64,000 bases of DNA from contig CAZQLH010000001.1 in assembly GCA_964594155.1 (NCBI GenBank), forward strand, positions 74,132 through 138,131, in the 5' to 3' direction. The DNA comes from an uncultured Candidatus Saccharibacteria bacterium. GTDB lineage: Bacteria > Patescibacteriota > Minisyncoccia > Portnoybacterales > UBA2143. Positions 5,857 through 43,989 of this stretch are shown piece by piece; within the stretch, counting starts at the first letter, position 1; each line of letters begins with the position of its first letter. The translations under genes were made by a program, and so were the position numbers. The notes under the pieces were generated by a model. The model was not told the DNA's origin. It did no database searches and saw only the letters and a program-made list of their open reading frames with translations.

Positions 5857-6408
5857 CTATTTATCTTTATCTAACTTTCTTTTTCTTCGTATTAAAACCA
5901 TTGTTAAAATCGGCAGAAGAATCCAGACAAACTGAGCTTCAGAACCAGTAAGTATTTTTCTGATTGGAGAAGAAAGAGTATCTATTGCTTCTTGTGGCAA
6001 AAAAGAAAGAATAACCATGGCTAATAAACCAACCTGAACAACGCTTAAGGTAAAAAGCTGCAGCCAAGAAGCATACCCTCTTTTCCTAATTCTTAAAGTT
6101 GAGCTTAATACTGAACGAGGAATTAAAAAATAGAATAATAAGATAAGACATAAGAAAATCAAAGTTCTTAAAGAAGATGAGGGTTCCTGTCCGATTCCCA
6201 GCCACCCATAAGAAGTTATTCTTTGCCAAGGAACAGCTTGAACAATAGCTAAGGAAAAATAACTGCCTAAAAGCAAGATTATCATCCGATTGCGGCCAAG
6301 AAAAAAACCATAAACAAGAACCGTAACTAAGAAAATTAAAATAATAAACAAATCCCAGCCTGAAGCTGATCCTATGTGTAAATTAGTTAAAAAATCACGA
6401 AAAGCCAT
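5857..6408 (-). CDS. Hypothetical polytopic membrane protein
   Basis: 183 aa with 4-5 hydrophobic segments and a basic C-terminal tail. Its start overlaps the dnaJ stop (ATGA). No recognisable family motif. Confidence 0.4.
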   Translation of the reverse strand: MAFRDFLTNLHIGSASGWDLFIILIFLVTVLVYGFFLGRNRMIILLLGSYFSLAIVQAVPWQRITSYGWLGIGQEPSSSLRTLIFLCLILLFYFLIPRSVLSSTLRIRKRGYASWLQLFTLSVVQVGLLAMVILSFLPQEAIDTLSSPIRKILTGSEAQFVWILLPILTMVLIRRKRKLDKDK

Positions 6409-7493
6409 TATGTTTTCCCTAGTTCTTTAATAATTTTCTTTTGTTGACGAGATGGTTTCTTAGGAACATTAACTTGAATTTTAACAATTAAACTTCCTTG
6501 TCCTTGTCCATACAATCTTGACATGCCTTTATTCTTTAATTCTATCATTTCTCCGGGTTGAATACCAGCTGGAATTTTTAATTTAACTTTTCCATCTAAT
6601 ATTGGTATTTCTATTTTATCGCCTAAAACTGCTTGGGCAAAGTTAATATTCAGATTAAAAACCAAATCATCTCCTTGTCGTTGAAATTGCTTATGAGGCT
6701 TAACATGAACATTGATAAATAAATCGCCGGCTGGTCCGCCATAAGGCCCTGCTTCTCCCTGATTAGACATTTTCAATGTCTGTCCATTATTAATGCCAGC
6801 TGGAATAGTAATTTTAATCTTGCTGATTTTTTTTATTCTTCCCTGACCGCGACATTCAGGACAAGTTTTCTCTGGCATCTCTCCGCGTCCATGACATTTA
6901 GAACATTGTCTTTGCTGAATAAACATTCCGAACAAACTACTGCTTCTTATTTGCTCATAACCGCTTCCTTGGCAATTAGAGCACTTTTTTAAAGATTTAC
7001 CGCCTTTTCCATCGCATTTTTCACAAACATTCATTTTTTTTAATTCTATCTCTTTTTTAACTCCATGAAAAGCGTCTTCTAAATCTATTTCTGTATCTAT
7101 AATAATATCTTGGCCATATTGAACAGTTTGTCTGGGTCTGGCCCCAAAGCCGAACATTTGTTCAAAAATCCGTCCAAAACCAAGATCTTCAAAAATATCC
7201 TGACCGCCAAAAGCATCGTAAAAAGAACCAAAATCCTGTTGGGAAAATCCCTGGCCAAAAGGCGCTCCTTCAAATACTTGACCATATTGATCATATTGGT
7301 CTTTCTTGTTTTTATCAGAAAGAACGCTATAGGCCTTACTAATTTCTTTAAATTTTTTTTCGTATTCTTTTTTCTTACTTTCAGGAGCCCGATCAGGATG
7401 GTATTTTAAAGCTAATTTTCGATAAGCTTTTTTGATTTCACTCTCTGAAGCGCTGCGAGGAACCCCTAAAACTTCATAATAATCTTTTGCCAT
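6408..7493 (-). CDS. dnaJ: Chaperone DnaJ
   Basis: J-domain with HPD (KYHPDRAP), a G/F-rich linker, four CxxCxGxG zinc-finger repeats and a C-terminal peptide-binding domain. Confidence 0.9.
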
Positions 7494-7507
7494 ATATTAA
7501 TTAAACC

Positions 7508-8260
7508 CTATAACTCTATTACTTCCTTTAAAACTGATCGTTCTTGTATTTTTACCGCTCCTAAAAAAACTAAAATCTTGAAAATCAGCATACTTAATAA
7601 AATAACTAACCACATAAAAGGAACACTGATTGTTTTTATTGCAAAAAAAATACCCAAAGACAAGCCAATTGGAAAATATTCTTTATAGGGCTGACTGCGT
7701 TTATTAATTTCTTGATTCAAAGTTTGATAAATTGCATCCTCAATGCTTTCTTCGCCTAATAAGGAAGTATACGGCTTAACTGCTATATCAAATAAAGGGC
7801 GAGGGATTTCAATTTGGCCTTGTCCTTTAAGAGATAATGGGGAAAAATAATAAGCTGAAGCGATAATTAAAGATAAAGCTGTCAAAATATACGGCAATCC
7901 CCGTTTAAGAATTCTAAATACTTGAATTTTAACTCTAATATTTTTTTCTTCAATTGCGCGCAAAGAACCAAAATAGAAAAGAAGGAAAGCAGTAAAAAGA
8001 ACAGCTAAATATTCCAATTTAAAACTAAAAGAAAGCAAAAAGGAAACCAAAACAACAATTAGGGTAACTAATAATATTGGCTTTGATTCAGCTAACAGCC
8101 AAGCTAAACTTAAAAAGACCACTAAAATTAAAAAGCCCAAGCTTGGCCAAATCCAACTTCCATTTTCAAATAAGATGTTTTTTAACCCAGACCAACTAAC
8201 AGCGGCCACTAAAGTGGCCAAACCTACAATAACTGATTGAGTAACACGATTAGTAGTCAT
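7508..8260 (-). CDS. Hypothetical integral membrane protein
   Basis: 250 aa with multiple TM helices and no diagnostic motif. It lies adjacent to the glycosyltransferase locus. Confidence 0.35.
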   Translation of the reverse strand: MTTNRVTQSVIVGLATLVAAVSWSGLKNILFENGSWIWPSLGFLILVVFLSLAWLLAESKPILLVTLIVVLVSFLLSFSFKLEYLAVLFTAFLLFYFGSLRAIEEKNIRVKIQVFRILKRGLPYILTALSLIIASAYYFSPLSLKGQGQIEIPRPLFDIAVKPYTSLLGEESIEDAIYQTLNQEINKRSQPYKEYFPIGLSLGIFFAIKTISVPFMWLVILLSMLIFKILVFLGAVKIQERSVLKEVIEL

Positions 8261-8279
8261 ATTCTTATTCTACTACAAT

Positions 8280-9395
8280 TTAAACGTATTTCAAAGTTAT
8301 TTTTTCCACAACTTCATTCCAGTTATAGTTTTGCTTGCAGTATTTTTGAATTTTTACGCCTCTTTGATAAGAAGAAGAAGAATTATCTAAGATCAATCTA
8401 AGCTTGTTTTTTAAATCCTTAACACTTTTATTTTTAAAAAAGAAAGGTAAATTGCCAAACATATCTTGATGCGATTGAATTTTTGAAAGTATAAGCGAAT
8501 TTCCAAAACTGCCTGCTTCCATTACTGCTAAAGATAAGCCTTCTTGTTCTGAAGGATTAACAAAAACATAAGCATTGCTAAAAAGTTCTTTTAGAATTTT
8601 CCCTTGTTGAGCTCCCAAGAAAAGGATTTTTGGATTATCTTTAGCTATTTTTTTTAACTCCTTTTCATAATCCTGAGTGTAAAAAGCAGGGCCAACAATA
8701 ACCAATTTCTTTTCTGTATCAATTTTTTTATACGCTTTAATCAAATAATGAAGGCCTTTGTGGCGAATTAAACGGCTAACAGCTAAAATATAATTGTTCT
8801 TTTTCAATCCCCATCTTTTAATGGATTTTGCTGGTATATTTTTTTCTCTATTAACTCCATGTGGGATAAATTTAACAGACTGATTGTATTTTATCTTAAT
8901 ATATTTTTCCAATTCAACAGATACTGGAATAATTTCATCAGCTAAATAACAGCCAATCATTTCCCCTGCTTTTAAAGACAGTTGGGCAAATTTCCCCCAT
9001 TTTTGATGAAAATAATCCTGACAATGAAAAGTAAAAATAACTTTAGTTTGAGGACTGAAAAGCTTAGGTATCCAAAGACATAAAGCTGGACCAACTCCAT
9101 GATAATGAATTACATCAGGTTTAAGCTTAAAAACAGCATGCCAACTAGCTAAAAAAACATGGGTAATGGTGTCTAAATGCTTTGTTCTGATGCTAGGCAA
9201 ATGTATAACATTTACTTTTTTGTGTTTTTTAACTGTTTTTGGCGTATAATATGATCGAGCATAAACAAAAACCTGATATAAAGAGCCAGTCAAATCCATT
9301 TTTTTAACTAAACAACAAGACACCTCCTCAACATGACGCTCTATTCCTCCAAAAAGAGCTGGTATTCCTTTTTGGCCAATCATTGCTATTTTCAT
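8280..9395 (-). CDS. Glycosyltransferase, GT4 family (GT-B fold)
   Basis: 371 aa. The N-terminal Gly-rich loop IGQKGIPALFGGIERH and the C-terminal EGLSLAVMEAGSFG EX7E-like motif are typical of GT4. Confidence 0.7.
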   Translation of the reverse strand: MKIAMIGQKGIPALFGGIERHVEEVSCCLVKKMDLTGSLYQVFVYARSYYTPKTVKKHKKVNVIHLPSIRTKHLDTITHVFLASWHAVFKLKPDVIHYHGVGPALCLWIPKLFSPQTKVIFTFHCQDYFHQKWGKFAQLSLKAGEMIGCYLADEIIPVSVELEKYIKIKYNQSVKFIPHGVNREKNIPAKSIKRWGLKKNNYILAVSRLIRHKGLHYLIKAYKKIDTEKKLVIVGPAFYTQDYEKELKKIAKDNPKILFLGAQQGKILKELFSNAYVFVNPSEQEGLSLAVMEAGSFGNSLILSKIQSHQDMFGNLPFFFKNKSVKDLKNKLRLILDNSSSSYQRGVKIQKYCKQNYNWNEVVEKITLKYV

Positions 9396-10720
9396 TTTTC
9401 AAAAGAGATTATCCCCTCCCAGTCATTATTAATAATTTCTTCCTTTGTATATTCCTTTTGATTATTATTCAAAATTATTTTAAAAGATAAACTGTCTATG
9501 CCTGATTGTTTTTGGACTAAAATTCTGTAATCTGCTTCTTTAATAATATGGCCAGGTAAAAAATATGTCAATTCAATTATTTTTTCTTGGCCAGTTGGAA
9601 CTACAATCCAATGCCCAAATGCTGTTTTGCCTAAATCTTCAAAGAATTTTGCTTCGCTATTAACATTATTTGCGCTTATTAATTGAGATCCAGCCGGCGC
9701 ATAAACTCTTAAATAGGCCTGGTAATCCCGGCTAAACCAATTTTTTTCTTTACCATTATGTAAATATTTTATTTTAAGATTAACTTCTGGTTTTTCTTTA
9801 TCTAAATTAACAAAATATTCCACCTCTCTTTTAACAAAAGCATTGCTTTTCATAGCGCCAAAGTTGGCTTCATTTACCATTAAATAGTCGTTTGGATATG
9901 GTTGATTAACTTGCCCGCTCCAATTAAATTCTGAGATCATTTTCTGATCTTTAATATCTTTGGTAAAAATAAGAATGTTTTTTCTGTCTAATTCTAATAA
10001 AACCAAATCTTTTAGCTTATTCTGCTCCCAAAAGCTTTTTTGGGTTAATTGATTTAAAATTTCTTTAACCAATGCCTTAAAAATCGTCTTTCTTTCACCG
10101 CGGCTAATTCCTCTTTCAATATATGCTTTTTCTACTTCGTATTCCAATTGATAAAGAGCGTCTTCTGATTTAAATTCTTTATCAAATTTTTCTAAATAAA
10201 CAGGTCCGATAAATTCCAACAAGCTTGGCAAAATTGCAGCGTTAATTCCAATTATTCCGTCAAATTCTTCATGGCCTGATTGAAGATGGTAAAAATACTC
10301 TGCTTGCTGAGCTGATATTGGCCAATCAGGCGACCAATTGCTGTCTCTCATTTGCCAGTTAGCAACGCCTAAATAATCCTTCATTGGCTGAGGCGGCTCT
10401 GTTTGAATTTTTCCAAACCCGTCAAAAATATTAGTATCATGAATTTCAAAAGCAATTGGCTGTCCATTTTTCACTTTTATAATGCCAAAACTGCCAAGGA
10501 ATCCGCCAGTCGGGCGCAATTCTAAATTATTTTGAAAAAGCAAAAGATAGGTCTTTTCTCCGGAAAATCCAGCTAATTTAGAAAATAATTTCAAAAGAGA
10601 AATCTGATCAATTTTATCTTGGCTTGTTAACCATCCCTGATTCCAAAACAAAAATCCGCCTGTAATTATTAAGATTAAAGAAAGTATAATTAGAGTTTTA
10701 ATTGTTTTGGATTCGTTCAT
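9392..10720 (-). CDS. Membrane-anchored extracytoplasmic protein, DUF4012-like
   Basis: An N-terminal TM segment is followed by LLLFQNNLELRPTGGFLGSFG, which resembles the conserved core of DUF4012 proteins found in cell-surface polysaccharide loci. This assignment is from memory and is tentative. Confidence 0.4.
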   Translation of the reverse strand: MNESKTIKTLIILSLILIITGGFLFWNQGWLTSQDKIDQISLLKLFSKLAGFSGEKTYLLLFQNNLELRPTGGFLGSFGIIKVKNGQPIAFEIHDTNIFDGFGKIQTEPPQPMKDYLGVANWQMRDSNWSPDWPISAQQAEYFYHLQSGHEEFDGIIGINAAILPSLLEFIGPVYLEKFDKEFKSEDALYQLEYEVEKAYIERGISRGERKTIFKALVKEILNQLTQKSFWEQNKLKDLVLLELDRKNILIFTKDIKDQKMISEFNWSGQVNQPYPNDYLMVNEANFGAMKSNAFVKREVEYFVNLDKEKPEVNLKIKYLHNGKEKNWFSRDYQAYLRVYAPAGSQLISANNVNSEAKFFEDLGKTAFGHWIVVPTGQEKIIELTYFLPGHIIKEADYRILVQKQSGIDSLSFKIILNNNQKEYTKEEIINNDWEGIISFEK

Positions 10721-11933
10721 ATATCTTAATTATCTTTTTATAATGCTTTTCTGAATTATATTTTTCCAAAGCTTGTTTTTGGGCATTCTTACCCATTTGT
10801 CTTATTTCTTTTTTATGGTTAATCGCCCAAATAATCTTATCTGTTAAATCTTTTTGATTATTTAGTTTGAATAATATGCCAGTTTTCTTGTCTTTAATTA
10901 ATTCTGGAATACCGCCAACTTTAGCTGCTAAAACTGGCTTAGCTAAAGATAAGCTTTCTAAAATGCTAAAAGGCAAATTATCCGGCCAAATTGAAGCAAG
11001 AACTGTTAAATAAGATTTAGAAATTATTTCTTTTAACTGGCTTCTTTGTTTTCTGCCTAAAAATTCTATATTTTTATTATTTTCAGCTAATCTTTTTAAT
11101 TCATCTTTTTCTGGGCCATTACCAGCTATCTTTAATTTCCACTTAGGGAATTTATCTGAAACATCTAAAAATGATTTAATTAAAAGCTTAATTCCTTTTT
11201 CCCGGCTTAACCGCCCAAAGTATAATAAATATGGATTTTCTTTTGAAGATGAACTTTGTTTTTTATCTTTAGAAACAAAATACGGCAAATGAATAACTTT
11301 TTTCACTGGTATGCCTGCTTCTAACGCCTTTTTTTTCATAAACCTGCTTGGCGCTAAGAAAACGTCTATTTTATCTGTTGCTTTTAAAATATCTTTTTGT
11401 GATTTTGCTTCTAAATAACCGATTAAACTTTTAATATATGAATCTTTAATGCATTTTTTATACAAACAGGAACGAAAGTTTCTTTTTTCTAAACAATCAA
11501 AACATATTTTTCCTTGGGAAAACAACTGATAATTTGGACAAAACAACTTATAATCATGCAAAGTCATTGCTATTGGAATATTATATTTTTTTAATGTAAA
11601 AATTATTGACAGAGAAAGATGGCTCATAAAATTATGCAGATGAGCAATATCTGGTTTTTCTCTTTTAATAATCTTTTCTAATTTCTTAGCTGCTTCTTTA
11701 TTCCAAAAAATTCTTTTTACTTTCTTAAAATCCTTGAAAAATCCTTCGTGTTTGGAAAAATCACTGAATTGAGCAAAATCCTTTAAACCAGGAAAAGAAA
11801 AGTTCTTTGGGTGTTGGACGCTCCAAACTATAACCTGATGGCCTTTTTCAGATAAAAGATCTGATAAGTCAAAAAAGTGCCTCTCTGATCCTCCTTTTAA
11901 AAAGAAAAATTTATTTATCTGAAGTATTTTCAT
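10698..11933 (-). CDS. Glycosyltransferase, GT4 family
   Basis: 411 aa. The C-terminal motif AAKVGGIPELIKDKKTG (E-x7-E region) is typical of GT4 retaining glycosyltransferases. Confidence 0.75.
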   Translation of the reverse strand: MKILQINKFFFLKGGSERHFFDLSDLLSEKGHQVIVWSVQHPKNFSFPGLKDFAQFSDFSKHEGFFKDFKKVKRIFWNKEAAKKLEKIIKREKPDIAHLHNFMSHLSLSIIFTLKKYNIPIAMTLHDYKLFCPNYQLFSQGKICFDCLEKRNFRSCLYKKCIKDSYIKSLIGYLEAKSQKDILKATDKIDVFLAPSRFMKKKALEAGIPVKKVIHLPYFVSKDKKQSSSSKENPYLLYFGRLSREKGIKLLIKSFLDVSDKFPKWKLKIAGNGPEKDELKRLAENNKNIEFLGRKQRSQLKEIISKSYLTVLASIWPDNLPFSILESLSLAKPVLAAKVGGIPELIKDKKTGILFKLNNQKDLTDKIIWAINHKKEIRQMGKNAQKQALEKYNSEKHYKKIIKIYERIQNN

Positions 11934-12955
11934 CTGAAATACAAATTAGTTTGTTTTATTGAGAATTTTTGTCTTGTGATGAATAAGTAAAACTTTTCTT
12001 GCAAAATCCATCTGACAACCTTAAACCAATTCTTCTTAATTGCTTGTCTGACGGTGCAAATCATCCAGCTTACTGGAGGATTCTCTGATAAAATCTTTTG
12101 CCTGGCCTGATTAGAAAACTTAGACCAATTTTTTATTTTATGAAGCCGGCCTATTTTCAAATTCCAGACATTAGATGGATAAATATAGCCAAAAGGATCA
12201 ATAAATAATGAATTTAACCCGGAATAATCCGGCAAAATTCTTTGTCTGTTTTTTAAAAAATTGATTGTTCCCCAGATAAAATAAGCTCTTAACCATTTCT
12301 TAGGGGAAAAACTTCTTAATTCTTGGCTAATCAGCCAGTTTAATTCTCTTTCTATTTGTCTTAAATTATGAATTCTGTTATCTTGTTTTTTAAAATAATG
12401 GGAAGAATTATGATAAACAGACAAGCTAAATTCTGTTTTTAATTCCTTGCTTAGCTGATAAATCCTTTTCAACTGATTAATATTATGACTTCCTAAAGTA
12501 AAAGCAATCTTTAAATCTCTTATTCCTAACTCTTTTAACAGCCGAATGGTCTCTAAAGCCAAGCTAAAGCCTCCTGGAAATCTTCTTAATTCCTCATGAG
12601 CCCTGCCAAATCCGTCTAATGAAACAGCTATTCCAATATTTTTCCTAAACTTAATAACTCTCTGCATTGTTTCTTTTATCTTACTAGGCAGAAAACCATT
12701 GGTGGAAATAACGATTTTAGCTTTTGGGCATTGACGGCTAATATTTTTAATAATTTCTAATAAATCCTGCCTTAAAAATGGTTCTCCTCCACTAATATTG
12801 ACGTTTTCAAGATTTCGTGGTAGATTTTTATAATCAATCGGTTTACAAGAAAAAAACTCCTGATTTTGCCAAATATTACAAAATCGGCAATGGCTATTAC
12901 ACTGATAAGTTACTGCTAAAACCACGTCCTTAATTGTTGAATTAAATCTATTCAT
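11930..12955 (-). CDS. Radical SAM protein inside the polysaccharide locus
   Basis: The CxxxCxxC motif CNSHCRFCNIW lies near the N-terminus, and a GGEP-like motif NISGGEPFL follows. Its substrate is unknown. Confidence 0.7.
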   Translation of the reverse strand: MNRFNSTIKDVVLAVTYQCNSHCRFCNIWQNQEFFSCKPIDYKNLPRNLENVNISGGEPFLRQDLLEIIKNISRQCPKAKIVISTNGFLPSKIKETMQRVIKFRKNIGIAVSLDGFGRAHEELRRFPGGFSLALETIRLLKELGIRDLKIAFTLGSHNINQLKRIYQLSKELKTEFSLSVYHNSSHYFKKQDNRIHNLRQIERELNWLISQELRSFSPKKWLRAYFIWGTINFLKNRQRILPDYSGLNSLFIDPFGYIYPSNVWNLKIGRLHKIKNWSKFSNQARQKILSENPPVSWMICTVRQAIKKNWFKVVRWILQEKFYLFITRQKFSIKQTNLYFR

Positions 12956-12997
12956 ATATAAAATATATCTCTTAAGACCGTTACTTTACCAGAATAT

Positions 12998-14215
12998 ATG
13001 AAAAAAGTCAATAATAAAAATAGAAAAAAAACTTTTTACTTTTTACTTAGCTTGGTCTTATTAAGGCCATCTTTGGATATTTTTAGCCAAATAGAATTTC
13101 AAATTCATCCTAATTTGCCTATTTTTAATATTAATATTATTATTGGCGGATTAGTTTTTTTAATTTGTCTGCTATTTTTTAGTAAAAATATAAAAAATAT
13201 TTATTCTACGCCGCTTTTTTATCCTATTTTACTATTTTTAGGACTATGTTTTGCCAGTATTTTTTATTCTATTGATCCATTTAACAGTATTAGAGAATTT
13301 ATTAGAATTATTACGATTTTTCTTCTTTATTTTCTATCTTATCAATTGATTGAGAGTAAAAAAGATTTCTGGCTATTAATAAAAATTATTCTAATAAGCT
13401 ATATTTTGCCTGGTATTTTTGCCTTAATTCAGCTTATTTTTGGCTTAGGCCTGCCTGATGACTTTGGCGGATTTAAAAGAATTTACGGCACTTTTGCCCA
13501 TCCTAATCCTTTTGCTTTTTACACTTTTTTCATCTTAGGATTAGCCCTTGCTTTAACTCTGTCAAAAACACGCATTAATGTTACGTCTTGGTTTTTAATT
13601 ATTATTTTAACCTTTCTTCTTTTCTCTACTCATACTAGAAGCGCAATTGCTTGTTTTTTTATCTTTATTATTATTTTCGGGGTTTTTAAATACAGGCAAA
13701 TTCTTTTGGCTGGAATCATGATTTTCTTTTTTGCTTATTTCTTTTCTGAAATCTTTCAACAGCGCCTTTGGGAATTAATTGCTTTAGATCCATACAGTTC
13801 AGTTGTTTGGCGATTTCGCCTTTGGAAAGATATAATTCCAATTTCTATGTGGCAGCCATGGCTTGGCTATGGAACTGGAACTTTTACAAACTTAGTTGAA
13901 TTTTACAGGGGTTTTAAATGGGGCAGCTTAGAAGCGCATAATGATTATTTAAAAATATTTGTTGAAAACGGCATTTTGGGCTTAATCGCCTATTTTTGGC
14001 TTATTGCCAGCTTATTATTTTATTTGCTTAAAATATTCAAAAAAACTATTAATCAAGATAAAATTCTAACTTTGGGGATTTTAGTTATTTGTATAAGCTT
14101 ATTTGCCGCTAGTTTTTTTGACAATATTCTACGCGAAACAGCCCTTCAGTGGAATCTTTGGATTCTTTTAGCTGGCTGGTTAAAAATCCAATTAAAAAAC
14201 CCTGCATCTTTTTAG
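12998..14215 (+). CDS. O-antigen ligase / polymerase-like membrane protein (Wzy_C-like)
   Basis: 405 aa with about 10 TM helices and a central extracytoplasmic loop carrying the conserved His/Arg-rich region (FAHPN, HTRS, H-N-DYL) typical of the WaaL/Wzy superfamily. Confidence 0.6.
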   Translation: MKKVNNKNRKKTFYFLLSLVLLRPSLDIFSQIEFQIHPNLPIFNINIIIGGLVFLICLLFFSKNIKNIYSTPLFYPILLFLGLCFASIFYSIDPFNSIREFIRIITIFLLYFLSYQLIESKKDFWLLIKIILISYILPGIFALIQLIFGLGLPDDFGGFKRIYGTFAHPNPFAFYTFFILGLALALTLSKTRINVTSWFLIIILTFLLFSTHTRSAIACFFIFIIIFGVFKYRQILLAGIMIFFFAYFFSEIFQQRLWELIALDPYSSVVWRFRLWKDIIPISMWQPWLGYGTGTFTNLVEFYRGFKWGSLEAHNDYLKIFVENGILGLIAYFWLIASLLFYLLKIFKKTINQDKILTLGILVICISLFAASFFDNILRETALQWNLWILLAGWLKIQLKNPASF

Positions 14216-14237
14216 ATACAGGGTCTTTTTGTTTTTT
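14200..14237 (+). terminator. Rho-independent terminator overlapping the stop of the Wzy-like gene, bidirectional in form
   Basis: Hairpin ccctgcatct-tttt-agatacaggg (one mismatch) is followed by tctttttgtttttt. An A-run precedes it, so it can also terminate minus-strand transcription. Confidence 0.65.
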
Positions 14238-14264
14238 AATCCCTCCTAACTATCATTATTATCT

Positions 14265-14391
14265 CGGGCGGCAATGCCTATCCCTTGAAAATGACAAAGT
14301 CCTTTAGATGATAATATAATAATCTATTCTCTTCCTAAATAGCAATGCTTGTTTAGGAAAGAATTTGCGAATAAATAGCAATGCTTGTTTA
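14265..14391 (-). promoter_or_regulatory. Orphan copy of the leader/operator motif set shared with 18009-18050 (GGCAATGCC palindrome plus two AATAGCAATGCTTGTTTA direct repeats)
   Basis: cgggcggcaatgcctatccc (14265-14284) is about 90% identical to cggacggcaatgcctatcca at 18009-18028. A 19-bp direct repeat aaatagcaatgcttgttta occurs at 14337-14355 and 14373-14391, and tagcaatgctt recurs at 18036-18045. Confidence 0.5.
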
Positions 14392-14414
14392 TTCTGAAAG
14401 TTTGTTGAGAGATT

Positions 14415-15029
14415 TTATTCAGCCAATTCTGGATGCCGGCCTTGTTTTAATTTTCCCAGGCCAAGCGATTTCAGAGGAATCGTGGGCTTATTTGGATACA
14501 TTACCAAGCCAATGGCTAATGTGTCCATAACAACTGCCCCAAGATCCATTTCATAAATAATCCATTTATTTTTTGGATCAAGAAGGAAAAATCCAACATC
14601 ATTGTCTGCTGATTCAGCATATCCCCAAATATGCTCCACAACCGGCTCTTTAACGCCTTTGGCATAATTGGGCAAACTGAATTCAGCTCTGCCTTTTTTT
14701 ACAACAATGTCCGCAAAATAAAAATTTCTTTTGCCAGCCGCATGAAGGATGCCAGAAGCCAGTTTAATTCTGACAGCTGATTTTACCTTTTTTTTCATTG
14801 ACGCCATTGCCGGATTAAGAATAGTAACATGAACTCTGTCGCCTATATCCTTAACCTTAATTGAAAACTTGGCCATTGGCGCCATATCAGCTGTTGGCGC
14901 AGTAAGCTTGCTGTCTTTCATTAAAGCGCGAATCTCATCAGCGGTTTCTGGATGCTTCATCTGTTCTGCGCTGACAAAAACGGGAAATAACCAGAAAATC
15001 GCCAACACTATGAATAATGTTCTTTTCAC
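14415..15029 (-). CDS. Secreted hypothetical protein (signal peptide)
   Basis: N-terminal MKRTLFIVLAIFWLFPVFVSAEQ (signal peptide with AxA-like cleavage region). The rest is hydrophilic with no known motif. The gene reads GC-richer than its surroundings. Confidence 0.45.
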   Translation of the reverse strand: MKRTLFIVLAIFWLFPVFVSAEQMKHPETADEIRALMKDSKLTAPTADMAPMAKFSIKVKDIGDRVHVTILNPAMASMKKKVKSAVRIKLASGILHAAGKRNFYFADIVVKKGRAEFSLPNYAKGVKEPVVEHIWGYAESADNDVGFFLLDPKNKWIIYEMDLGAVVMDTLAIGLVMYPNKPTIPLKSLGLGKLKQGRHPELAE

Positions 15030-15035
15030 TCTACA

Positions 15036-16616
15036 TCACCTCCTTTTTTTTAATTTCTGTTTTAAAATATTCCAGATTTCCTGTTCTGCTTTTTCTGTGT
15101 CAATAACTGAAATCGGGATACTTCTTTTACTCTTGCTAAAAATTTGATGATAAAGATTATACAAGCTAATCTCGCCGTAAAGACCAGTAGAACTTGTATT
15201 TCCTTTGCTACTCTTCCAATCTGTATAACCAGCGCCTATTTTAAAAGAACCATTAAAACATGACAGGCCGATTTTGCCTCCGGTTCCCAATTTGCTGTTT
15301 TCAGCATAATAGGTTCCGCGGGTCTCGCTCCAAACCTGTAAATCTTTGCCAATGATATCAAAGACATCAGCATAAACCGCCAGATTATAAGCGCCTTTAT
15401 TGTCTGGTTCTCCATTTAACGGCTGTTGTCCGTTCCATTGATCAGTCCAATAATCGTTTTTCTGATGATTTATGTCTATTTCCACTTCACCAGAAACACG
15501 AATCTTGGAAAACCATTTTTCATTAGCCCGTCCATTGTATTCAGCAGAAGAATAGAAATTCATAATATCTGTTTTCTGCTCCACGCTGTACTGGCCAAAC
15601 TGATTATTCAGATAACCCTGATCCTTGCGCTGGCCTAAGCCAGCCCTGCCAAGAACTTCCCAATTTCTTTTCTGGTCGCGGAAACGCCCGGCTATAGCCC
15701 AGATATCCGCATCGCCTTTGTAATGAAACGGATTGCTTTCTCCGGTTTCGCCTGACCAATTTCTGGCCGTGTAATTCAACCCAAATGCCCATTCATTTCC
15801 GTCATAATCATCAAAAACAACCGGGTAAAGAGTTGACGACTGCCACCAGCCACTTACATTATTGCCGTCTTTATAGCTTTCGCTATATCCGCCCCAAGTT
15901 GAATCCCAGTCCCATTTATGTTTTTTAACTTTTGCTGGAATTTCCAACCTATCTGCTAAAAAGAATGGAAATGGCGGCGGTATTGGGGGTATTGGCGGAG
16001 GCAAAAGTAAAGCTATTTTTTTCTTTTGCTTGATTGCCCAATTTCCGCAATAAATCGGATACCAAAGCTCGCGGCCGTTATCAAGCTGATAAACCCGGGC
16101 TGCTTGTTTTTTGCCTTTCCAATCAACAACAACATTTCTCCAGATATGAAATTTCTTTCCGAAAAGCATTTTCACAAACTCATCTTTTTCCTTGATAATA
16201 TCCCAGCGAAATCCTTTTTGGGATTTTTCCAAGGCATCCATATGAATGGAAATGACTTTCTCGGTTTGCTCTATGGTTAATCCAAGAGTTCTTAATCCCT
16301 GAATGTCCCGAAGCAGTTGCTTTTCAGAATCAGCTGGAAATCTTTTAAAAGGATTTCTATTGAAATCTTTCCAAATTGATTTAGCATTAATATCCAGAAG
16401 ATCGCTTAAATGAATCTTCTGATTAGGAAAAATAGAATTCCTTTTTCTTGCCTCTGTCCTGACTTTTGCCCAAGGAATATGAAAAACCTTGATAGCGATT
16501 TTATAAATACTATCGCCTTTCTTTACCGTGTAAACCCTGTCATCTGATTGAAAAGCAGAGGCAGAATTTACAATGGCAAAGAATACAATTATTGTTAAGA
16601 GTATTCTTTTTATCAT
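15036..16616 (-). CDS. Secreted LysM-domain protein with Pro-rich linker and Gly/aromatic-rich C-terminal domain
   Basis: Signal peptide MIKRILLTIIVFFAIVNSASA. LysM-like segment YTVKKGDSIYKIAIKVF...IHLSDLLDI. PPPIPPIPPPFPFF linker. The C-terminal 300 aa are rich in W/Y/G/N with alternating-pattern stretches (beta-rich, barrel- or wall-binding-like). Confidence 0.5.
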   Translation of the reverse strand: MIKRILLTIIVFFAIVNSASAFQSDDRVYTVKKGDSIYKIAIKVFHIPWAKVRTEARKRNSIFPNQKIHLSDLLDINAKSIWKDFNRNPFKRFPADSEKQLLRDIQGLRTLGLTIEQTEKVISIHMDALEKSQKGFRWDIIKEKDEFVKMLFGKKFHIWRNVVVDWKGKKQAARVYQLDNGRELWYPIYCGNWAIKQKKKIALLLPPPIPPIPPPFPFFLADRLEIPAKVKKHKWDWDSTWGGYSESYKDGNNVSGWWQSSTLYPVVFDDYDGNEWAFGLNYTARNWSGETGESNPFHYKGDADIWAIAGRFRDQKRNWEVLGRAGLGQRKDQGYLNNQFGQYSVEQKTDIMNFYSSAEYNGRANEKWFSKIRVSGEVEIDINHQKNDYWTDQWNGQQPLNGEPDNKGAYNLAVYADVFDIIGKDLQVWSETRGTYYAENSKLGTGGKIGLSCFNGSFKIGAGYTDWKSSKGNTSSTGLYGEISLYNLYHQIFSKSKRSIPISVIDTEKAEQEIWNILKQKLKKRR

Positions 16617-16632
16617 AATTCTGCCCCTTTTT

Positions 16633-17469
16633 TTAATCTTGCTTCATGCGCAATTGCAGCCATTCTTTATAATCGCGTTCGTACTGTTCTTTTTTTTGTT
16701 GATAATCCTGCATTTCTTTATTCCACTTATTAAATCCGAGCTTTTCAAGAGTCAAGCCAAGCTGAAATCTATCCACTAAGGCTGTGTCGTAATACGGCAG
16801 GTATAAATCAGCTTTTTGGACAATCGCTTGAACAAGCGACCAAATCCTAACGCCGAAAATGCCGAATAAAGAAGAAAAATCAGTTGCCCCGGCCAAAATT
16901 ATATCATCTGTGGTAATTTTGGCTACCTGGGACATAACCCGGTCAAAAAGGCCTGGAATTTTCTGATTGTCTAAGCCTTTTCCGATATTAATTAAAATAG
17001 TTTGTATTTGCTTATCCTGTTCAGAATCTAATTTAATATTTTCCCAAATCTCAATCCCGGTTTCGCCCAATAACTTAATCTTAGACCAATCTAATTTTGG
17101 AACTAAATAGCCATTTTTGGAAAAGATATTTTTTCCATCAACAGTATAAAAGTTCCTGCCGCTTCGTGAAGAAATAATGCATTTTTGATTAGAAAGATCT
17201 GCTTCAGCTATTATTAATAACCGATTTTTAACCCTGACGCCAGAAAATGATTTCTTGTTATCTAATGGTTGTTCCAAAAATAAATTATGGCGTACCCCTG
17301 ATCCTTCTGATAAAAAAAGAACAGGATGTATTTCCAACCAATAGACATTATAAGATAGAAAAGCTTGTTCTTCTATCTTATTTATATCTTTTTCCGGCAT
17401 TATGAATTGCCGATTAGCGCAGGCGCTCAAAGAAAGCGCCAGCATTAACATTATTGTTAATCTTTTCAC
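16633..17469 (-). CDS. Putative lipoprotein, hypothetical
   Basis: The N-terminus MKRLTIMLMLALSLSACANRQ has an LSAC lipobox-like motif. No further family motif. The stop overlaps the start of the upstream gene by 4 nt, which fits co-transcription. Confidence 0.45.
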   Translation of the reverse strand: MKRLTIMLMLALSLSACANRQFIMPEKDINKIEEQAFLSYNVYWLEIHPVLFLSEGSGVRHNLFLEQPLDNKKSFSGVRVKNRLLIIAEADLSNQKCIISSRSGRNFYTVDGKNIFSKNGYLVPKLDWSKIKLLGETGIEIWENIKLDSEQDKQIQTILINIGKGLDNQKIPGLFDRVMSQVAKITTDDIILAGATDFSSLFGIFGVRIWSLVQAIVQKADLYLPYYDTALVDRFQLGLTLEKLGFNKWNKEMQDYQQKKEQYERDYKEWLQLRMKQD

Positions 17470-17993
17470 ACTGTCACCTCCTTGAATGATTTTAGCTCTT
17501 CGTTTTGTTTATAGTGCAGTTTAAGATGTTTTGCCACCCTATGAGGGTTTTTATTCCTAAATTTACAAATAGGACAGCAAATCATTTCTTTTTCCATAAA
17601 GCATTTAACTTCAAATACCCTCTTATTGGCAAAACCCAATCTAATAATTTTCTGGCTTTTCTGAGTTGTTTTTATTCTTTTTCTACGTATATAGAAAAAA
17701 ACAACAATCAAGAAAAAAATAGACACAATTCCTGACATAATTTCTAAAAAAGAATTATTTGAAATAATATCTTTTTTCTTTTCAAAAACCGGAATCTTAA
17801 GGCCCTCGCCAGCAAAAATAGTGTCTTTTATAGTGCGATTATTTATTTTTGCCAGTTCATCCATTGGAATTTTATACTTTACAGCAATAATTCCCCATGT
17901 TTCTTTTGGCTGGACTACATGAATCTTGTATTCCTGCGCAAAGCCCAAAGAATAACAAAACAACGCCACAAAACAAATCAATATCTTTTTCAT
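17466..17993 (-). CDS. Single-pass membrane protein with extracytoplasmic LysM domain and cytoplasmic C2H2-type zinc finger
   Basis: The start is taken at MKKILICF (ATG 17993-17991) because GAGAGG lies 8 nt upstream; the ORF track begins 12 codons earlier. Signal peptide, then LysM YKIHVVQPKETWGIIAVKYKIPMDELAKINNRTIKDTIFAGEGLKIP, then TM helix IMSGIVSIFFLIVVFFYI + RRKR, then CPICKFRNKNPHRVAKHLKLH (C-x2-C-x12-H-x3-H). Confidence 0.5.
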   Translation of the reverse strand: MKKILICFVALFCYSLGFAQEYKIHVVQPKETWGIIAVKYKIPMDELAKINNRTIKDTIFAGEGLKIPVFEKKKDIISNNSFLEIMSGIVSIFFLIVVFFYIRRKRIKTTQKSQKIIRLGFANKRVFEVKCFMEKEMICCPICKFRNKNPHRVAKHLKLHYKQNEELKSFKEVTV

Positions 17994-18008
17994 TTCAAAC
18001 CTCTCTTT

Positions 18009-18050
18009 CGGACGGCAATGCCTATCCATTATAGTAGCAATGCTTTCTAT
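18009..18050 (-). promoter_or_regulatory. Leader/operator motifs upstream of the LysM cassette (GGCAATGCC palindrome, TAGCAATGCTT site, TATAAT -10)
   Basis: On the minus strand: AAGCATTGCTACTATAATGGATAGGCATTGCCGTCCGAAAGAGAGGTTTGAAATG. TATAAT lies at 18033-18028 and the RBS GAGAGG follows. The motifs are shared with 14265-14391. Confidence 0.5.
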
Positions 18051-18087
18051 TTAATTTTCAAGGAACTCCTCCTTAAAAACCTCCTCT

Positions 18088-18726
18088 TTAGATATAAAAA
18101 TCATTTCTATCCAAAAAGGAAGTTTCTTTTTTTAAAACCCAGATTATGCCAATTAAAAATCCTGCTAAAGCGCCTAAAATTGAACCTACCCACAGCTGAA
18201 TAACAACTGGTTTTTGACTGACTAACGGCTCATTTAAAATCTTTAATTCAACATTTTGTCCGCCGCCATGATAAAACCAATGTTCATCTGCTAATGTATT
18301 GATAATTGCCCGGCTGATTTGTTCAGCTTTTTCTTTTTGAGGATAAAAAACATCTATCTCTATTATTCCTAAATCGCGGATTATTGTTGTTTTAACTGTT
18401 TTTTGCCATTGTTTCCGTCTTTTTTTGATTTGAGGTGAAAAGCCATCTGCTTCCACTTGATAAGACGATTGCGTAACTTTTTCAAAAAAACTATCAGAAT
18501 AAATTCCTTGTTTTAAAATACGGGAAAGATATTGAGCTGATTTAGAAATACTATAAATATCCTGGCCAGATACTTGTTTTTGAACAACTAATATCTTAGA
18601 ACTGGATTTATATTGCGGTGTTTGAATAACAGCCAAATCAAAAACTAAAACAGCCCCTAAAACAGTCAGCCAAAAGATTAGCCATTTCTTTTTATAAAGC
18701 GTTTTGATTGTTTGTTTAAAAGTCAT
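18088..18726 (-). CDS. Polysaccharide chain-length determinant (Wzz/PCP-like, short form)
   Basis: 212 aa. An N-terminal TM segment is followed by VIQTPQYKSSSKILV (the PxY.S...I Wzz signature region), and a C-terminal second TM GSILGALAGFLIGIIW follows. This N- and C-terminal TM topology is typical of PCP proteins. Confidence 0.5.
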   Translation of the reverse strand: MTFKQTIKTLYKKKWLIFWLTVLGAVLVFDLAVIQTPQYKSSSKILVVQKQVSGQDIYSISKSAQYLSRILKQGIYSDSFFEKVTQSSYQVEADGFSPQIKKRRKQWQKTVKTTIIRDLGIIEIDVFYPQKEKAEQISRAIINTLADEHWFYHGGGQNVELKILNEPLVSQKPVVIQLWVGSILGALAGFLIGIIWVLKKETSFLDRNDFYI

Positions 18727-18751
18727 AAAAAAATTGCCTTATCACAGGCAA
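18727..18751 (-). terminator. Hairpin plus T-run immediately upstream of the Wzz-like start codon; likely terminator of the dnaK transcript
   Basis: Minus strand reads ttgcctgtgataaggcaa then TTTTTTT then ATG of the 18088-18726 gene. No Shine-Dalgarno sequence lies between. Confidence 0.5.
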
Positions 18752-18802
18752 TAATATTATAACCAAATTCTATCTTGTTTGTCAAATTTTGTCAAGCGAA
18801 TT

Positions 18803-18864
18803 CAAGGACCGTCATAGAAAATGATGTTCTTGGAACAAGGACGTCATTTTCAGGACGGTCCTTA
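18803..18864. repeat. Degenerate copy of the AAGGAC...GTCCTT palindromic repeat family, immediately downstream of dnaK
   Basis: aaggaccgtc ... gacggtcctt form 10-bp perfect outer arms. The inner arms are imperfect and the centre is a cttg-gaa-caag mini-hairpin. The right half aaggacgtcattttcaggacggtcctt is close to the right arm of the copies at 5783 and 50134. Confidence 0.75.
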
Positions 18865-18867
18865 AAA

Positions 18868-20715
18868 TTATTCCTTCTTTTCCTCCTCTTTAACTTCCTC
18901 ATATTCCCCCTTAACAGTATCTTTTCCCTTTATCTCTGGTTCTGACTGTTCGGCTTTCTCCTCCTCAACCTTTTTATATAATTGAGCGCCAATTTTTTGA
19001 ATTACTTGAGATAATTCATCAATTGCCTTTTTAAGCTCTTCAATCTCATTGCTGTCTTTTAATTTCTTTAATGCTTCTAATTTTTCATCAACTTCTTTTT
19101 TATCTTCTGCTTTTACTTTATCTCCAGATTCTTTAAGCGCTTTTTCAGTAGAAAAAATCAATGTATCAGCCTGATTGCGAACTTCAATTAATTCCTTTTT
19201 CTTTCTATCCTCAACTGAATGAGTTTCTGCTTCTTTTTTCATTTTTTCAATTTCTTCTTTAGAAAGAGCTGAAGAATCAGTAATAGTAATCTGCTGTTCC
19301 TTATTAGTTGCTTTATCTTTTGCCTTAACATTCAAAATACCATTAGCGTCAATATCAAAAGAAACTTCAATTTGAGGCGCGCCTCGCGGAGCTGGCGGAA
19401 TCCCGTCTAAAATAAATCTGCCTAAAGTCCGATTGTCGGATGCTATTGGCCTTTCTCCTTGTAAAATATGAATATCTACTGCTGGCTGATTATCAGCTGC
19501 TGTGGAAAAAATCTGGATTTTGGAAGCTGGAATAGTTGTATTGCGTTCAATCAAAGGCGTCATTACTTGCCCTAATGTTTCAATTCCTAAAGTCAAAGGA
19601 GTAACATCCAACAAAAGCACGTCTTTTGTCTCGCCAGTTAAAATACCTCCTTGAATACCTGCGCCCATAGCAACGCATTCCATTGGATCAACTCCTCTTT
19701 CTATTTTCTTTCCAGCATAATCTTCAACAAATTTATGAACAATCGGCATCCTGGTTGGTCCGCCAACCAAGATAATTTTAGTAATATCATTTGGAGTTAA
19801 TTTAGCGTCTTTTAAGGCCTGTTCCATTGGCTGTTGGCACTTATTAATAATCGGCTTAACTAATTCTTCTAATTTAGCCCTGGTAATTTTCATAGTTAAA
19901 TGCTTTGGACCAGCATCATCAGCGCTAATAAAAGGAAGATTAATATCTGTTTCTAAAGTTGAAGAAAGTTCAATCTTAGCTTTTTCCGCTCCTTCTTTAA
20001 GCCGCTGTAAAGAGGTCTTATCTTGCTTTAAGTCAATCTTATTTTCTTTTTTAAACTCTTCAGCTAAATAATCAATCAAAACTTCATCCATATCAGTCCC
20101 GCCTAATTGAGTATCTCCAGAAGTTGATTTTACTTCAAAAACTCCTTCGCCAAAATCCATAATTGTTACATCAAGCGTCCCTCCGCCAAGATCAAAAACA
20201 AGAATCTTTTCTTCTTGGTCTGCCTTGTCAATTCCATAAGCCAAAGAAGCAGCAGTTGGTTCATTAATAATTCTAACTACTTCTAATCCTGCTATCGCGC
20301 CTGCGTCTTTAGTTGCCTGTCTTTGGGCATCGTTAAAATAGGCTGGGGCGGTAATAACTGCTTTTTGTATTGGCTCGCCTAAAAATGCTTCTGCGTCTTT
20401 TTTAATTTTTTGCAAAATAAAAGCAGAAAGCTGTTGAGGAGTATATTCCTTGCCATTCAAAGCATACTTCTCTTTGGTCCCCATCTTTCTTTTAAACGCA
20501 GATGCAGTATTCTCTGGATTGGTAACTGCTTGGCGGCGAGCTGGCTCGCCAACTAAAAGATTGTTGTCTTTGTCAAAAGACACATATGATGGAAAGGCCT
20601 TGCCTCCGCCAACTACTGTTCCTTCAGCTGAAGGAATAATTGTTGGCTTGCCTGCTTCAACAACTGAAGCAGCTGAATTAGATGTTCCTAAGTCAATGCC
20701 AATTATTTTACTCAT
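18868..20715 (-). CDS. dnaK: Chaperone DnaK (Hsp70)
   Basis: 615 aa. Motifs [18 protein letters not shown] and [11 protein letters not shown] are present, with a C-terminal [10 protein letters not shown] tail. Confidence 0.95.
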
Positions 20716-20723
20716 ATTTTTAT

Positions 20724-21164
20724 TTATTTAATTTCAATCGGAATCTTTTTTGTTTTGGAAATAGCTTTAGCTACTTTGGGAATAGAGATTACAAGAATGC
20801 CGCCTTTGCTTTCAGCAACTGCTTTATTCCCTTTTACTTCCACTGGCAATTCAATTACCCGGCGAAAAGATCCTTTTTTAATTTCTTTTCTTAAATAATC
20901 TTTTTTCTTGATTTCCTTCTCTTCTTCGCTTTTTCCTTGGATAACTAAAATATTATCATCAATAGAAATCTCTACATTCTCTGGCTTTATTCCAACTAAA
21001 GGTATTTCTACGTAAAGATTATTTTTATCCTGATAAATATCTATAGATGGCTCTTCAGCTCTTTGAGTTGGCAAAAAAGGCATCCAATCTTCTTCAGGAA
21101 CAGGCATTCTTGGAAGATTTAAAGGCCTTTCTGGTTCTTTAAATGGCTGCCACTTGATAGGCAT
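20724..21164 (-). CDS. Small heat-shock protein (Hsp20/alpha-crystallin family)
   Basis: 146 aa. The alpha-crystallin domain pattern [39 protein letters not shown] is followed by [10 protein letters not shown] and the conserved C-terminal I-x-I motif (KKIPIEIK). It lies between grpE and dnaK. Confidence 0.85.
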
Positions 21165-21180
21165 AATTATATCTCCTTTC

Positions 21181-21684
21181 TTATTTAGCTACTTTTTTAG
21201 CTACTTTAACTTTACTTGTTCTTAATATTTTTCCGTTTAATAGATATCCTTTTTGCGCTTCTTCAATAATTATTCCTTGTTTTTCTTTTGATTCAACTTG
21301 TTCAACTGCCTCATGAAATTCTGGATTAAATTCTTCGCCAATTGCTTTAATTTCTTCTATATTACATTCTTTTAAAACGCTTATCATTTGTTCCTTGATT
21401 TTCTTAACATCTTTATTTTTTTCGGCTCCAGCTTCTAAGCTGTCTAAAACAGGTAATATTTTATTAATTACGCTAGCCTGACCGATTGCTACTATTCCAG
21501 GTATAATCTTTTCTTCTTGTCTTTTTCGATAATTAATTAAATCAGCCCGGACTCGCTGAGCTTGGATTAAGTACTCCTCCTTTTCTTTTTGGCATTCTTT
21601 AAGCTTTGCCTTAAATTCTTTTATTTTATCTCTTGGCTCTTTAGATTCTTCAGAAATATATTTAAGTTTTTTTTTCTTAATCAT
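21181..21684 (-). CDS. grpE: Nucleotide exchange factor GrpE
   Basis: 167 aa. A coiled-coil N-terminus is followed by the GrpE core (RADLINYRKR; the C-terminal beta domain ends FNPEFHEAV). The gene is upstream of dnaK. Confidence 0.85.
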   Translation of the reverse strand: MIKKKKLKYISEESKEPRDKIKEFKAKLKECQKEKEEYLIQAQRVRADLINYRKRQEEKIIPGIVAIGQASVINKILPVLDSLEAGAEKNKDVKKIKEQMISVLKECNIEEIKAIGEEFNPEFHEAVEQVESKEKQGIIIEEAQKGYLLNGKILRTSKVKVAKKVAK

Positions 21685-43652: not shown

Positions 43653-43727
43653 TGGCAGGCGCGGAGGGACTCGAACCCCCAGGATCGGCTTTGGAGGCCG
43701 ACCGTTTACCAATTAACGGACGCGCCC
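43653..43727 (-). tRNA. tRNA-Trp (anticodon CCA), 3' CCA encoded
   Basis: The reverse complement GGGCGCGTCCGTTAATTGGTAAACGGTCGGCCTCCAAAGCCGATCCTGGGGGTTCGAGTCCCTCCGCGCCTGCCA has anticodon loop CTCCAAA and is similar to E. coli tRNA-Trp. Confidence 0.85.
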
Positions 43728-43734
43728 ATATATT

Positions 43735-43893: not shown

Positions 43894-43903
43894 AGTTTTT
43901 CAG

Positions 43904-43976: not shown

Positions 43977-43989
43977 TTTTTTTATTATG

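Follow-up and report, generated by a model that had tools for sequence, protein, structure and literature searches.

The 64-kb window analyzed here, the whole of a stretch of DNA from an uncultured Candidatus Saccharibacteria bacterium, contains a minus-strand gene (17466..17993) for a protein that is predicted to hold a LysM domain outside the cell and a C2H2-like zinc finger domain in the cytoplasm. The transcription unit that includes this gene carries five copies of a small bulged hairpin. Throughout the window and 256 kb of related loci, the hairpins co-occur strictly with the zinc tail of the protein and not with the rest of the surrounding gene block. This suggests that the finger domain and the hairpins are functionally linked and raises the possibility, to which we give somewhat less than an even chance, of a finger that is tethered to the membrane and binds the hairpins of the mRNA encoding it.

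The minus-strand gene order is grpE, hsp20, dnaK, wzz, the zinc-tail gene, a lipoprotein gene, and the genes of a 526-aa LysM protein (the big protein) and a 204-aa protein (the small protein); the last four genes form a block whose products all have signal peptides. The frame from wzz to wzy recurs in relatives, with varying contents between the two genes. Zinc-tail cassettes are found in loci L001, L086, L087 and L098-L101. Cassettes L006/L090, L094, L095/96 and L097 have a non-zinc tail instead, and L009/L088 lacks the LysM-transmembrane (TM) gene but keeps the lipoprotein, big and small proteins at 45-52% identity (big protein 52%, lipoprotein 49%).

Architecture and topology of the protein

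The reading frame encodes 175 residues, the coordinates including the stop codon. We assign its true start codon to the ATG at 17993, because a Shine-Dalgarno sequence, GAGAGG (18000..18005, minus strand like all features of the transcription unit below), lies 6 nt upstream, because the homologues P0002-P0005 (66% identical) start with MKRIL at the equivalent position, and because an ATG at 18029 is not conserved. The Shine-Dalgarno sequence is kept in L001 and L086. The ATG at 18029, from which the 187-aa database call P0001 begins, was rejected as a start; it lies inside a conserved hairpin and is missing from L001. The assigned start is thus upstream of the TM segment, not downstream of it.

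The signal peptide (residues 1-20, 17934..17993; MKK, a hydrophobic core and the cleavage motif GFA|QE) coincides with a Kyte-Doolittle peak over residues 1-19, and an AXA-like motif immediately N-terminal of the LysM domain is preserved across relatives. The LysM domain (residues 22-68, 17790..17930) matches Pfam PF01476 over residues 25-68 (E=1.8e-7, 31.5 bits, gathering cut-off 20.9), a profile that all relatives match too. Its AlphaFold2 (AF2) model comprises strand 22-26, helices 33-39 and 44-50 and strand 64-68, with a predicted local distance difference test score (pLDDT) of 84-90, and Foldseek superposes it on solved LysM structures at a root mean square deviation of 0.7-2.2 Å over 45-51 columns (probability 1.0). 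About 14 residues separate the LysM domain from the bilayer. The single TM helix (residues 83-102, 17688..17747; Kyte-Doolittle peak 2.56) is modelled by AF2 as a helix over residues 79-110 and is followed by RRKRIK; the charge is +7 in the 15 residues after the TM segment and approximately neutral before it. Residues 103-175 have a pI of 10.3, with Lys or Arg at 21 of 73 positions, and the folded tail domain begins ~11 residues past the membrane.

The original prediction had described a signal peptide, a LysM domain, a single TM segment and a C-x2-C-x12-H-x3-H motif, with LysM and finger on opposite sides of the membrane. Pfam, hydropathy and an exact motif match bear out this layout. A topology with LysM outside and the tail in the cytoplasm, with or without cleavage of the signal peptide, is strongly predicted because of the signal peptide and the strong positive-inside bias. 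The protein is likewise strongly predicted to be a type-I single-pass envelope protein of Patescibacteria (candidate phyla radiation, CPR), with a LysM domain that would bind GlcNAc-containing glycan such as peptidoglycan or chitin. The host DNA is low in GC (33%), and its DnaK shares 88-89% identity with the DnaK of metagenome-assembled genomes labelled Candidatus Saccharibacteria or Patescibacteria group.

A C2H2-like finger in the tail domain

The cytoplasmic zinc-type domain (residues 114-173, 17475..17654) is strongly predicted to fold within ~60 aa into a beta-hairpin, a C2H2-like beta-beta-alpha finger and a closing strand. The AF2 model of residues 109-175 alone (pLDDT 83.7, predicted TM-score 0.68) contains strands 114-120, 126-134, 137-139 and 146-147, helix 150-162 and strand 170-173, and the same elements appear in the full-length model (mean pLDDT 76.6; tail 77-90). 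In the finger, strands 137-139 and 146-147 flank the CPIC motif and helix 150-162 bears H156 and H160, at a pLDDT of ~90. A beta-beta-alpha finger is thus predicted, as the original prediction would have it, and the only neighbors of the segment are C2H2 fingers with non-significant scores. Local superposition gives 0.7 Å over 22 columns for a BCL11A finger and 2.0 Å over 32 columns for an ARS2 finger, neither with a significant E-value. A profile of the tail run against the PDB gives weak C2H2 matches throughout (ZNF64, E=0.047; CTCF, 0.27; the TAX1BP1 UBZ, 0.42; BCL11A, 0.56), and a whole-domain Foldseek search of the tail gives no significant match, the best E-values being 2.1 in the PDB and 0.12 in BFVD.

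The pattern of the finger core, C140-P-I-C143-x12-H156-x3-H160 (17514..17576), occurs just once when the window is translated in all six frames, against ~0.015 occurrences per window in composition-preserving shuffles. The match is not due to chance, because C140, C143 and H156 are the same in every relative, including those of only 36% identity. An alignment of six tails (the window protein, P0002, P0004, P0005, P0007 and P0014) has 14 invariant positions, comprising C131, C140, C143, F145, H156, L157, K158, Y161, K162 and a few hydrophobic residues. Residue 160 is His in the window protein and P0014 and Glu in the other four. The extra Cys, C131 (codon 17601..17603), is an invariant column of alignments A2 and A3; it lies on strand 126-134 and, given the modelled register of the beta2-beta3 hairpin, probably opposite C140. 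Candidate metal ligands are therefore C140, C143 and H156 together with either H160/E160 or C131. Helix positions +3 and +6 are always Lys or Arg and position +4 is always hydrophobic, and in the window protein an aromatic residue stands two positions past the second Cys.

The segment had been called a classical C2H2 finger. Its spacing is exact, but judged from its sequence the tail is a C2H2-like finger inside a ~60-aa domain and not a textbook C2H2, because its Pfam scores fall below gathering thresholds, its fourth His is not conserved and it has an extra invariant Cys. The window protein scores 14.4 bits with zf-C2H2_9 (cut-off 29) and 10.3 bits with zf-C2H2_16 (cut-off 27), and its relatives score 12.7-14.3 bits with zf-Di19 and zf-C2H2_4 (cut-offs 27-27.5). 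Searches of NCBIfam and PHROGs with the protein gave LysM-level matches only.

The zinc tail is a constrained coding region under purifying selection, because the ratio of nonsynonymous to synonymous substitution rates (dN/dS) is 0.27-0.47 in the tail and 0.15 in the finger core between L001 and L086. The best conserved part of the protein is LysM, with a dN of 0.14 between the window and L001 against 0.28 for the tail. This difference would agree with a passive wall-to-membrane tether, whose basic tail acts as a topology plug on anionic lipids and whose Cys and His residues merely stabilize it, as would the variation or replacement of the tail across the family and its strongly basic character near the membrane. 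A charge plug, however, would call for neither a confidently modelled folded domain with so many invariant positions nor the degree of selection seen in the finger core, and it would leave the co-occurrence with the hairpins unexplained. We therefore consider a passive tether improbable.

Bulged triloop hairpins in the transcription unit

A 23-nt direct repeat, D2 (18030..18008 and 14286..14264, 91% identical), and copies of AAGCATTGCTA are common to two spacers, one of 94 nt between wzz and the zinc-tail gene and one of 200 nt past the 204-aa gene. In the hairpin element of these spacers, an outer stem (3-9 bp) leads through a 5' bulge NA to an inner stem of RGC and GCY, which encloses a triloop NUU; a 3' bulge of 0-1 nt precedes the second strand of the outer stem. 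Two copies precede the zinc-tail gene. W1 (A-type, 18031..18050) reads AUAG-AA-AGC-AUU-GCU-A-CUAU, and in L001 and L086 its outer stem differs by a double compensatory change (GCAG/CUGC). W2 (B-type, 18009..18028; UGGA-UA-GGC-AUU-GCC-G-UCCG) is a D2 copy, scores 33.7 bits with a covariance model and ends 3 nt 5' of the Shine-Dalgarno sequence. The other three lie in the 3' untranslated region (UTR) past the 204-aa gene. W3 (A-type, 7-bp outer stem, 14369..14394; 33.5 bits) and W4 (A-type, 9-bp outer stem, 14331..14360; 34.9 bits) are both part of the minimum free energy (MFE) fold, and W5 (B-type, 14266..14284; 31.8 bits), in the second D2 copy, sits atop a longer predicted stem. The inner stem of W5 is UGC/GCA in L001, again a compensatory change.

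L001 carries the same five copies. In L086 there are two, which both precede the gene; the three of L087 are in a different spacer, the one that separates the big LysM gene from the zinc-tail gene. This 248-nt spacer (L087 2854..3100) is predicted to be closed by a long-range stem, UAGAUUUAAUUGUC...GACAAUUAAAUUUA, into a single multi-branched structure.

The 15 hairpin copies have nine different, fully complementary outer stems, and their first inner pair is A-U in seven, G-C in seven and U-A in one. Paired cells make up 83% against 59% in shuffles, none of 500 of which reaches 83%. The covariation score is 0.685 against 0.21 for shuffled sequences and 0.11-0.24 with slid partners, for a structure derived from the same 15 sequences that were scored. 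The two long spacers fold much better than shuffled sequences (z = -7.25 and -6.82), and their MFE folds contain the hairpins. Run unfiltered over the window, the covariance model R1 recovers every copy except W1, which overlaps W2 and is not listed on its own; the four scores are 31.8-34.9 bits, and nothing elsewhere exceeds 15.5 bits. Over the 256 kb of related loci R1 matches only L001, L086 and L087, and it also matches the L001-like variants L098-L101; in non-zinc or LysM-less cassettes among the related loci scanned with R1, no copy was found. No matching family was found in Rfam. We rejected a reading of the hairpins as integron attC sites, as they are far shorter, have a different conserved core and have no integrase nearby.

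The motifs look like a folded single strand, most simply mRNA, rather than a duplex operator, because the stems covary freely, the loop and bulge are conserved, the element is strand-asymmetric and it lies inside a transcription unit. All five copies in the window are on the sense strand between promoter and terminator.

The original prediction had taken these motifs to be operator-like, and the gene to head the cassette and to be its possible regulator. A membrane-bound one-component transcription factor of this kind, with LysM sensing peptidoglycan and the finger binding duplex GCATTGC-palindrome operators, would suit a tail that is a basic C2H2-like domain, as well as the 9-bp cores RGCATTGCY, which are perfect 4+1+4 palindromes adjoining the gene. 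Membrane-bound regulators do exist, ToxR and CadC among them. In Ros/MucR, moreover, a single prokaryotic finger in a larger domain binds DNA (PMC9779718). We nevertheless regard such a factor as quite unlikely. Both the sequence and the length of the outer stems vary in a concerted way, with only the strand-asymmetric bulges, the inner stem and the loop conserved; three of the five hairpins belong to the 3' UTR and shortly precede the terminator; and the only strong promoter match is upstream of wzz, in a region conserved whether or not the gene is present. The membrane tether would also be very short. A TATAAT in the spacer (18033..18028), rejected as an internal promoter, is not conserved in L001. 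Pfam gives no Ros/MucR match (PF05443, ROS_MUCR; none at E<=1 for the window protein and relatives) and no winged helix-turn-helix (wHTH) or Trans_reg_C match in the window protein, whose N-terminus is a signal peptide.

The motifs themselves are thus real and directly 5' of the gene, but covarying stems, strand specificity and their place in a 5' leader and 3' UTR speak against duplex DNA operators. The gene does come first in a hairpin-bracketed four-gene block, but wzz and the best promoter match lie upstream of it. A role as general regulator of the cassette is not upheld: the promoter region is equally conserved without the gene, which is absent in L009 and has a non-zinc version elsewhere. 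An anti-sigma reading of the protein was also rejected, there being no sigma factor nearby.

A putative link between finger and hairpins

Our data suggest a functional link between finger and hairpins because L087, with its divergent block, keeps both the gene and the hairpins, whereas L009, with a closer block, has neither. The zinc-tail relative in L087 is only 36% identical and the big protein 27% identical. In L009/L088, the hairpin sites are empty at both positions and the gene is absent as well.

If the finger binds the hairpins, its putative ligand would be the bulged triloop hairpin, with two copies 5' of the ribosome-binding site and three in the 3' UTR, and the membrane would be where the protein acts on the polycistronic mRNA that encodes it. 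This message, which specifies four exported proteins, could thereby be held at the secretion site, and the protein may repress its own translation when bound at W2 beside the Shine-Dalgarno sequence. That wall-glycan occupancy of LysM alters hairpin binding is pure speculation. A complete two-part system, in which a LysM-bearing membrane finger binds hairpins that bracket the message and so holds or represses it, and in which wall status sensed by LysM might feed back on the synthesis of surface proteins without any transcription factor, would be of an undescribed kind and seems to us conceivable but rather doubtful. Hairpin binding, if true, would provide a compact coupling of the cell wall to the translation or localization of envelope-protein mRNA, and a defined protein-RNA pair amenable to in vitro tests with no need to grow the organism.

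Several points weigh against hairpin binding. The co-occurrence amounts to approximately two independent lineages (the window with L001 and L086, and L087) against five gene-less cassettes, and the hairpins are physically linked to the zinc-tail gene. Sister proteins at the same cassette position have a non-zinc tail and no hairpins, so that the wider family works without a hairpin ligand. A single finger would probably offer a small RNA-binding surface. As for the finger itself, the AF2 models were built on shallow alignments of 4-6 sequences, the fourth ligand of the predicted zinc site is ambiguous, and none of the Pfam zinc-finger models reaches its cut-off on the window protein or its relatives. 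Finally, translational coupling, here to the lipoprotein gene, characterizes structural subunits more than regulators.

Such a subunit could be an adaptor, whose LysM grips the wall while the zinc-stabilized tail docks a cytoplasmic or membrane partner, possibly the lipoprotein, Wzz/Wzy or the locus glycosyltransferases. In this case the hairpins would be unrelated mRNA elements, such as lineage-specific stability or processing elements. The constant position of the gene between wzz and the gene of the big LysM protein fits this explanation, as does a stop/start overlap with the next envelope gene that is present in the window, L001, L086 and the non-zinc version of L006. In the window the overlap of the zinc-tail stop and the lipoprotein start reads GTGA, and in L001 and L086 it reads ATGA. 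The tail can be exchanged for an unrelated non-zinc tail (hhalign 1%), the gene is dispensable in L009, and the folded domain stands so close to the membrane that its tether is very short. A DNA-binding-type fold reused for protein contact has a precedent in RodZ, whose helix-turn-helix (HTH) domain binds MreB. An adaptor, on the other hand, leaves unexplained a structured element that is found only with the zinc tail, in two spacers in one lineage and a third spacer in another, and it leaves unexplained the empty hairpin sites in the closest gene-less cassette; nor can a partner be named. We consider an adaptor possible, although well short of probable.

Comparison with known systems

The tail resembles the classical C2H2 fingers of CTCF, BCL11A, ZNF64 and TFIIIA in its spacing, the aromatic residue after the second Cys (as in CTCF), the hydrophobic residue at +4 and the predicted beta-beta-alpha fold. 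C2H2 fingers can recognize either DNA or RNA, as TFIIIA illustrates. In contrast to the classical fingers, the one described here occurs just once in its protein, a membrane protein of a bacterium, and has non-significant scores; most relatives have Glu in place of the last His, an additional, invariant Cys is found on a strand that precedes the finger, and the finger is buried in a four-to-five-stranded domain.

The Ros/MucR proteins of Alphaproteobacteria likewise have a bacterial Cys2His2-type site in a larger globular domain. The identity of their fourth ligand varies, an Asp may stand in for Cys, and zinc is missing from some of them (PMC9779718), a plasticity that parallels H160/E160 and the non-zinc sister tails seen here. 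Unlike them, the zinc tail has x12/x3 spacing and the order beta-beta, beta-beta-alpha, beta, with one main helix and a C-terminal strand. The x7/x4 spacing would need H151, which is not conserved in the tail alignment and is Gln or Ile in P0007 and P0014. Ros proteins are soluble, oligomeric, H-NS-like DNA binders, whereas the zinc-tail protein is predicted to be a membrane protein.

ToxR, CadC and TcpP share with the zinc-tail protein a single membrane pass, an extracytoplasmic sensor-type domain and a cytoplasmic domain of a nucleic-acid-binding type. They are oriented N-in, with an N-terminal winged helix and a long linker, whereas the zinc-tail protein is led by a signal peptide and is predicted to be C-in, with the finger ~11 residues from the membrane and a folded single strand as candidate target. 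Conserved bulged A and loop bases adjoining a ribosome-binding site recall the coat-protein hairpin of MS2/R17, and an RNA-binding module held at the membrane by one helix is known from RNase Y. There is no kinship in sequence or fold to either system, the hairpins here are multi-copy and also occur in the 3' UTR, and binding is predicted only.

A glycan or peptidoglycan binder outside, one TM helix and a small domain inside are also seen in FtsN (SPOR), RodZ (cytoplasmic HTH), YneA (LysM) and plant LysM receptor kinases. The zinc-tail protein differs from these bitopic proteins in orientation and cytoplasmic domain; it has no kinase, and it belongs to a wzz...wzy glycan cassette and not to the divisome or elongasome. 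Like REP/BIME palindromes, the hairpins are clustered imperfect palindromes in intercistronic and 3' operon regions. Unlike them, they are much shorter, conserve loop and bulge and not the stem sequence, and are not dispersed, with no other copy in the window or the 256 kb of related loci.

Rarity and relatives

A phmmer search of 1.84 billion cluster representatives returned 1039 matches. Among the best 150 of these, nearly all match by LysM alone and the zinc tail is found only in P0001, P0007 and P0014; P0002-P0005 were found through separate searches of a set of 5.8 billion clusters. A full-length profile searched against that set gives four clusters with eight sequences, all from Patescibacteria: P0001, P0002 (4 members), P0007 (2 members) and P0014. 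On the family's own zinc-tail proteins the tail profile A2 scores 87-136 bits. Scans of genome contigs and of metagenome contigs with the family alignment found no relatives, and a metagenome contig scan with the big LysM protein gave six loci.

The same layout with an unrelated, cysteine-free cytoplasmic tail is found in P0153, P0099, P0041, P0046 and L006 9961..10875. In these non-zinc relatives, which have a signal peptide and one TM helix, LysM is very similar, and the linker varies in length and is in some cases coiled-coil. Homology between the zinc and non-zinc tails is not supported (hhalign probability 1%, 9 columns), despite a suggestive MAFFT alignment.

LysM, the single-pass anchor and the C2H2-like finger are known kinds. 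What appears to be new is their combination, a tail without a Pfam or NCBIfam family and a hairpin without an Rfam family. Literature searches found no description of the LysM-TM-zinc-tail architecture. C2H2-like fingers are rare in bacteria, Ros/MucR being to our knowledge the only studied family, and we know of no bacterial C2H2-like finger described as membrane-anchored or tied to an RNA element. Patescibacteria have tiny genomes, few recognizable regulators and poorly understood envelopes, with mostly orphan surface proteins.

Genomic context

The upstream neighbor wzz (18088..18726) encodes a Wzz-like chain-length determinant (Pfam Wzz, 35.1 bits). Downstream of the zinc-tail gene lie the lipoprotein gene (16633..17469; lipobox LSAC), whose GTG start overlaps the TGA stop in an arrangement of translational coupling, the gene of the 526-aa secreted LysM protein (15036..16616), a constant neighbor of the LysM-TM-tail gene, and that of the 204-aa secreted protein (14415..15029), the final gene of the block. 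A convergent wzy follows, and then a radical-SAM gene, GT4, DUF4012, GT4 and dnaJ. The glycan/envelope locus as a whole (6408..21684) stands between grpE-hsp20-dnaK and dnaJ, splitting the usual chaperone operon.

Between the window and L001, DNA identity is 91% in wzz and 77-80% in the four block genes. The region between wzz and wzy (14415..18726) looks like a fast-evolving, exchangeable surface-protein block. Even if the tail does not bind the hairpins, that result would still define such a variable block, with alternative LysM-TM-tail genes and faster evolution than the flanks.

The last K-E-V codons of the zinc-tail gene spell a perfect ribosome-binding site, AAGGAGGTG, for the lipoprotein gene (window 17466..17482; L001 1455..1471; L086 830..846). 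Part of the C-terminal conservation of the tail may therefore be imposed by this downstream gene. In L098 (1468..2235), the lipoprotein gene is called at only 118 aa, with a gap after the zinc-tail gene, which suggests a deletion or frameshift.

The 278-, 526- and 204-aa neighbors are orphans in NCBIfam and PHROGs searches, and the 526-aa protein has a family or PDB match only for its LysM. This protein has a signal peptide, the LysM, a conserved FRW...CGNW middle and a proline-rich linker, and its C-terminal half is rich in Gly, Trp and Tyr and looks beta-rich.

The best sigma-70-like promoter match, the sole strong one, lies upstream of wzz (TTGACA-18-TATAAT, 12/12; 18785..18756). A TTGACAAA element and a downstream hairpin 5' of wzz are kept in cassettes with and without the zinc-tail gene. 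The promoter-like TTGACAAA box is doubled in the window and also found upstream of wzz in L001, L006, L007 and L009. It is followed in every cassette type by a terminator-like hairpin, TTGCCT-N6-AGGCAA with T7, directly 5' of the wzz ATG; in the window, box and hairpin lie within 18733..18795 (minus strand). This hairpin may block transcription running in from dnaK, with the promoter firing at or just past it. The transcription unit is closed by an intrinsic-terminator-like hairpin of 16 bp with a T-run (14194..14229), identified from sequence and predicted fold.

Just past the wzz stop codon (18052..18081, minus strand), a 12-bp hairpin, GGUUUUUAAGG/CCUUGAAAAUU, holds two Shine-Dalgarno-like AGGAGG boxes, and its flanks are kept in all cassette types. 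Elsewhere in the window, a cluster of four tRNA genes is found on the minus strand at 43656..44147.

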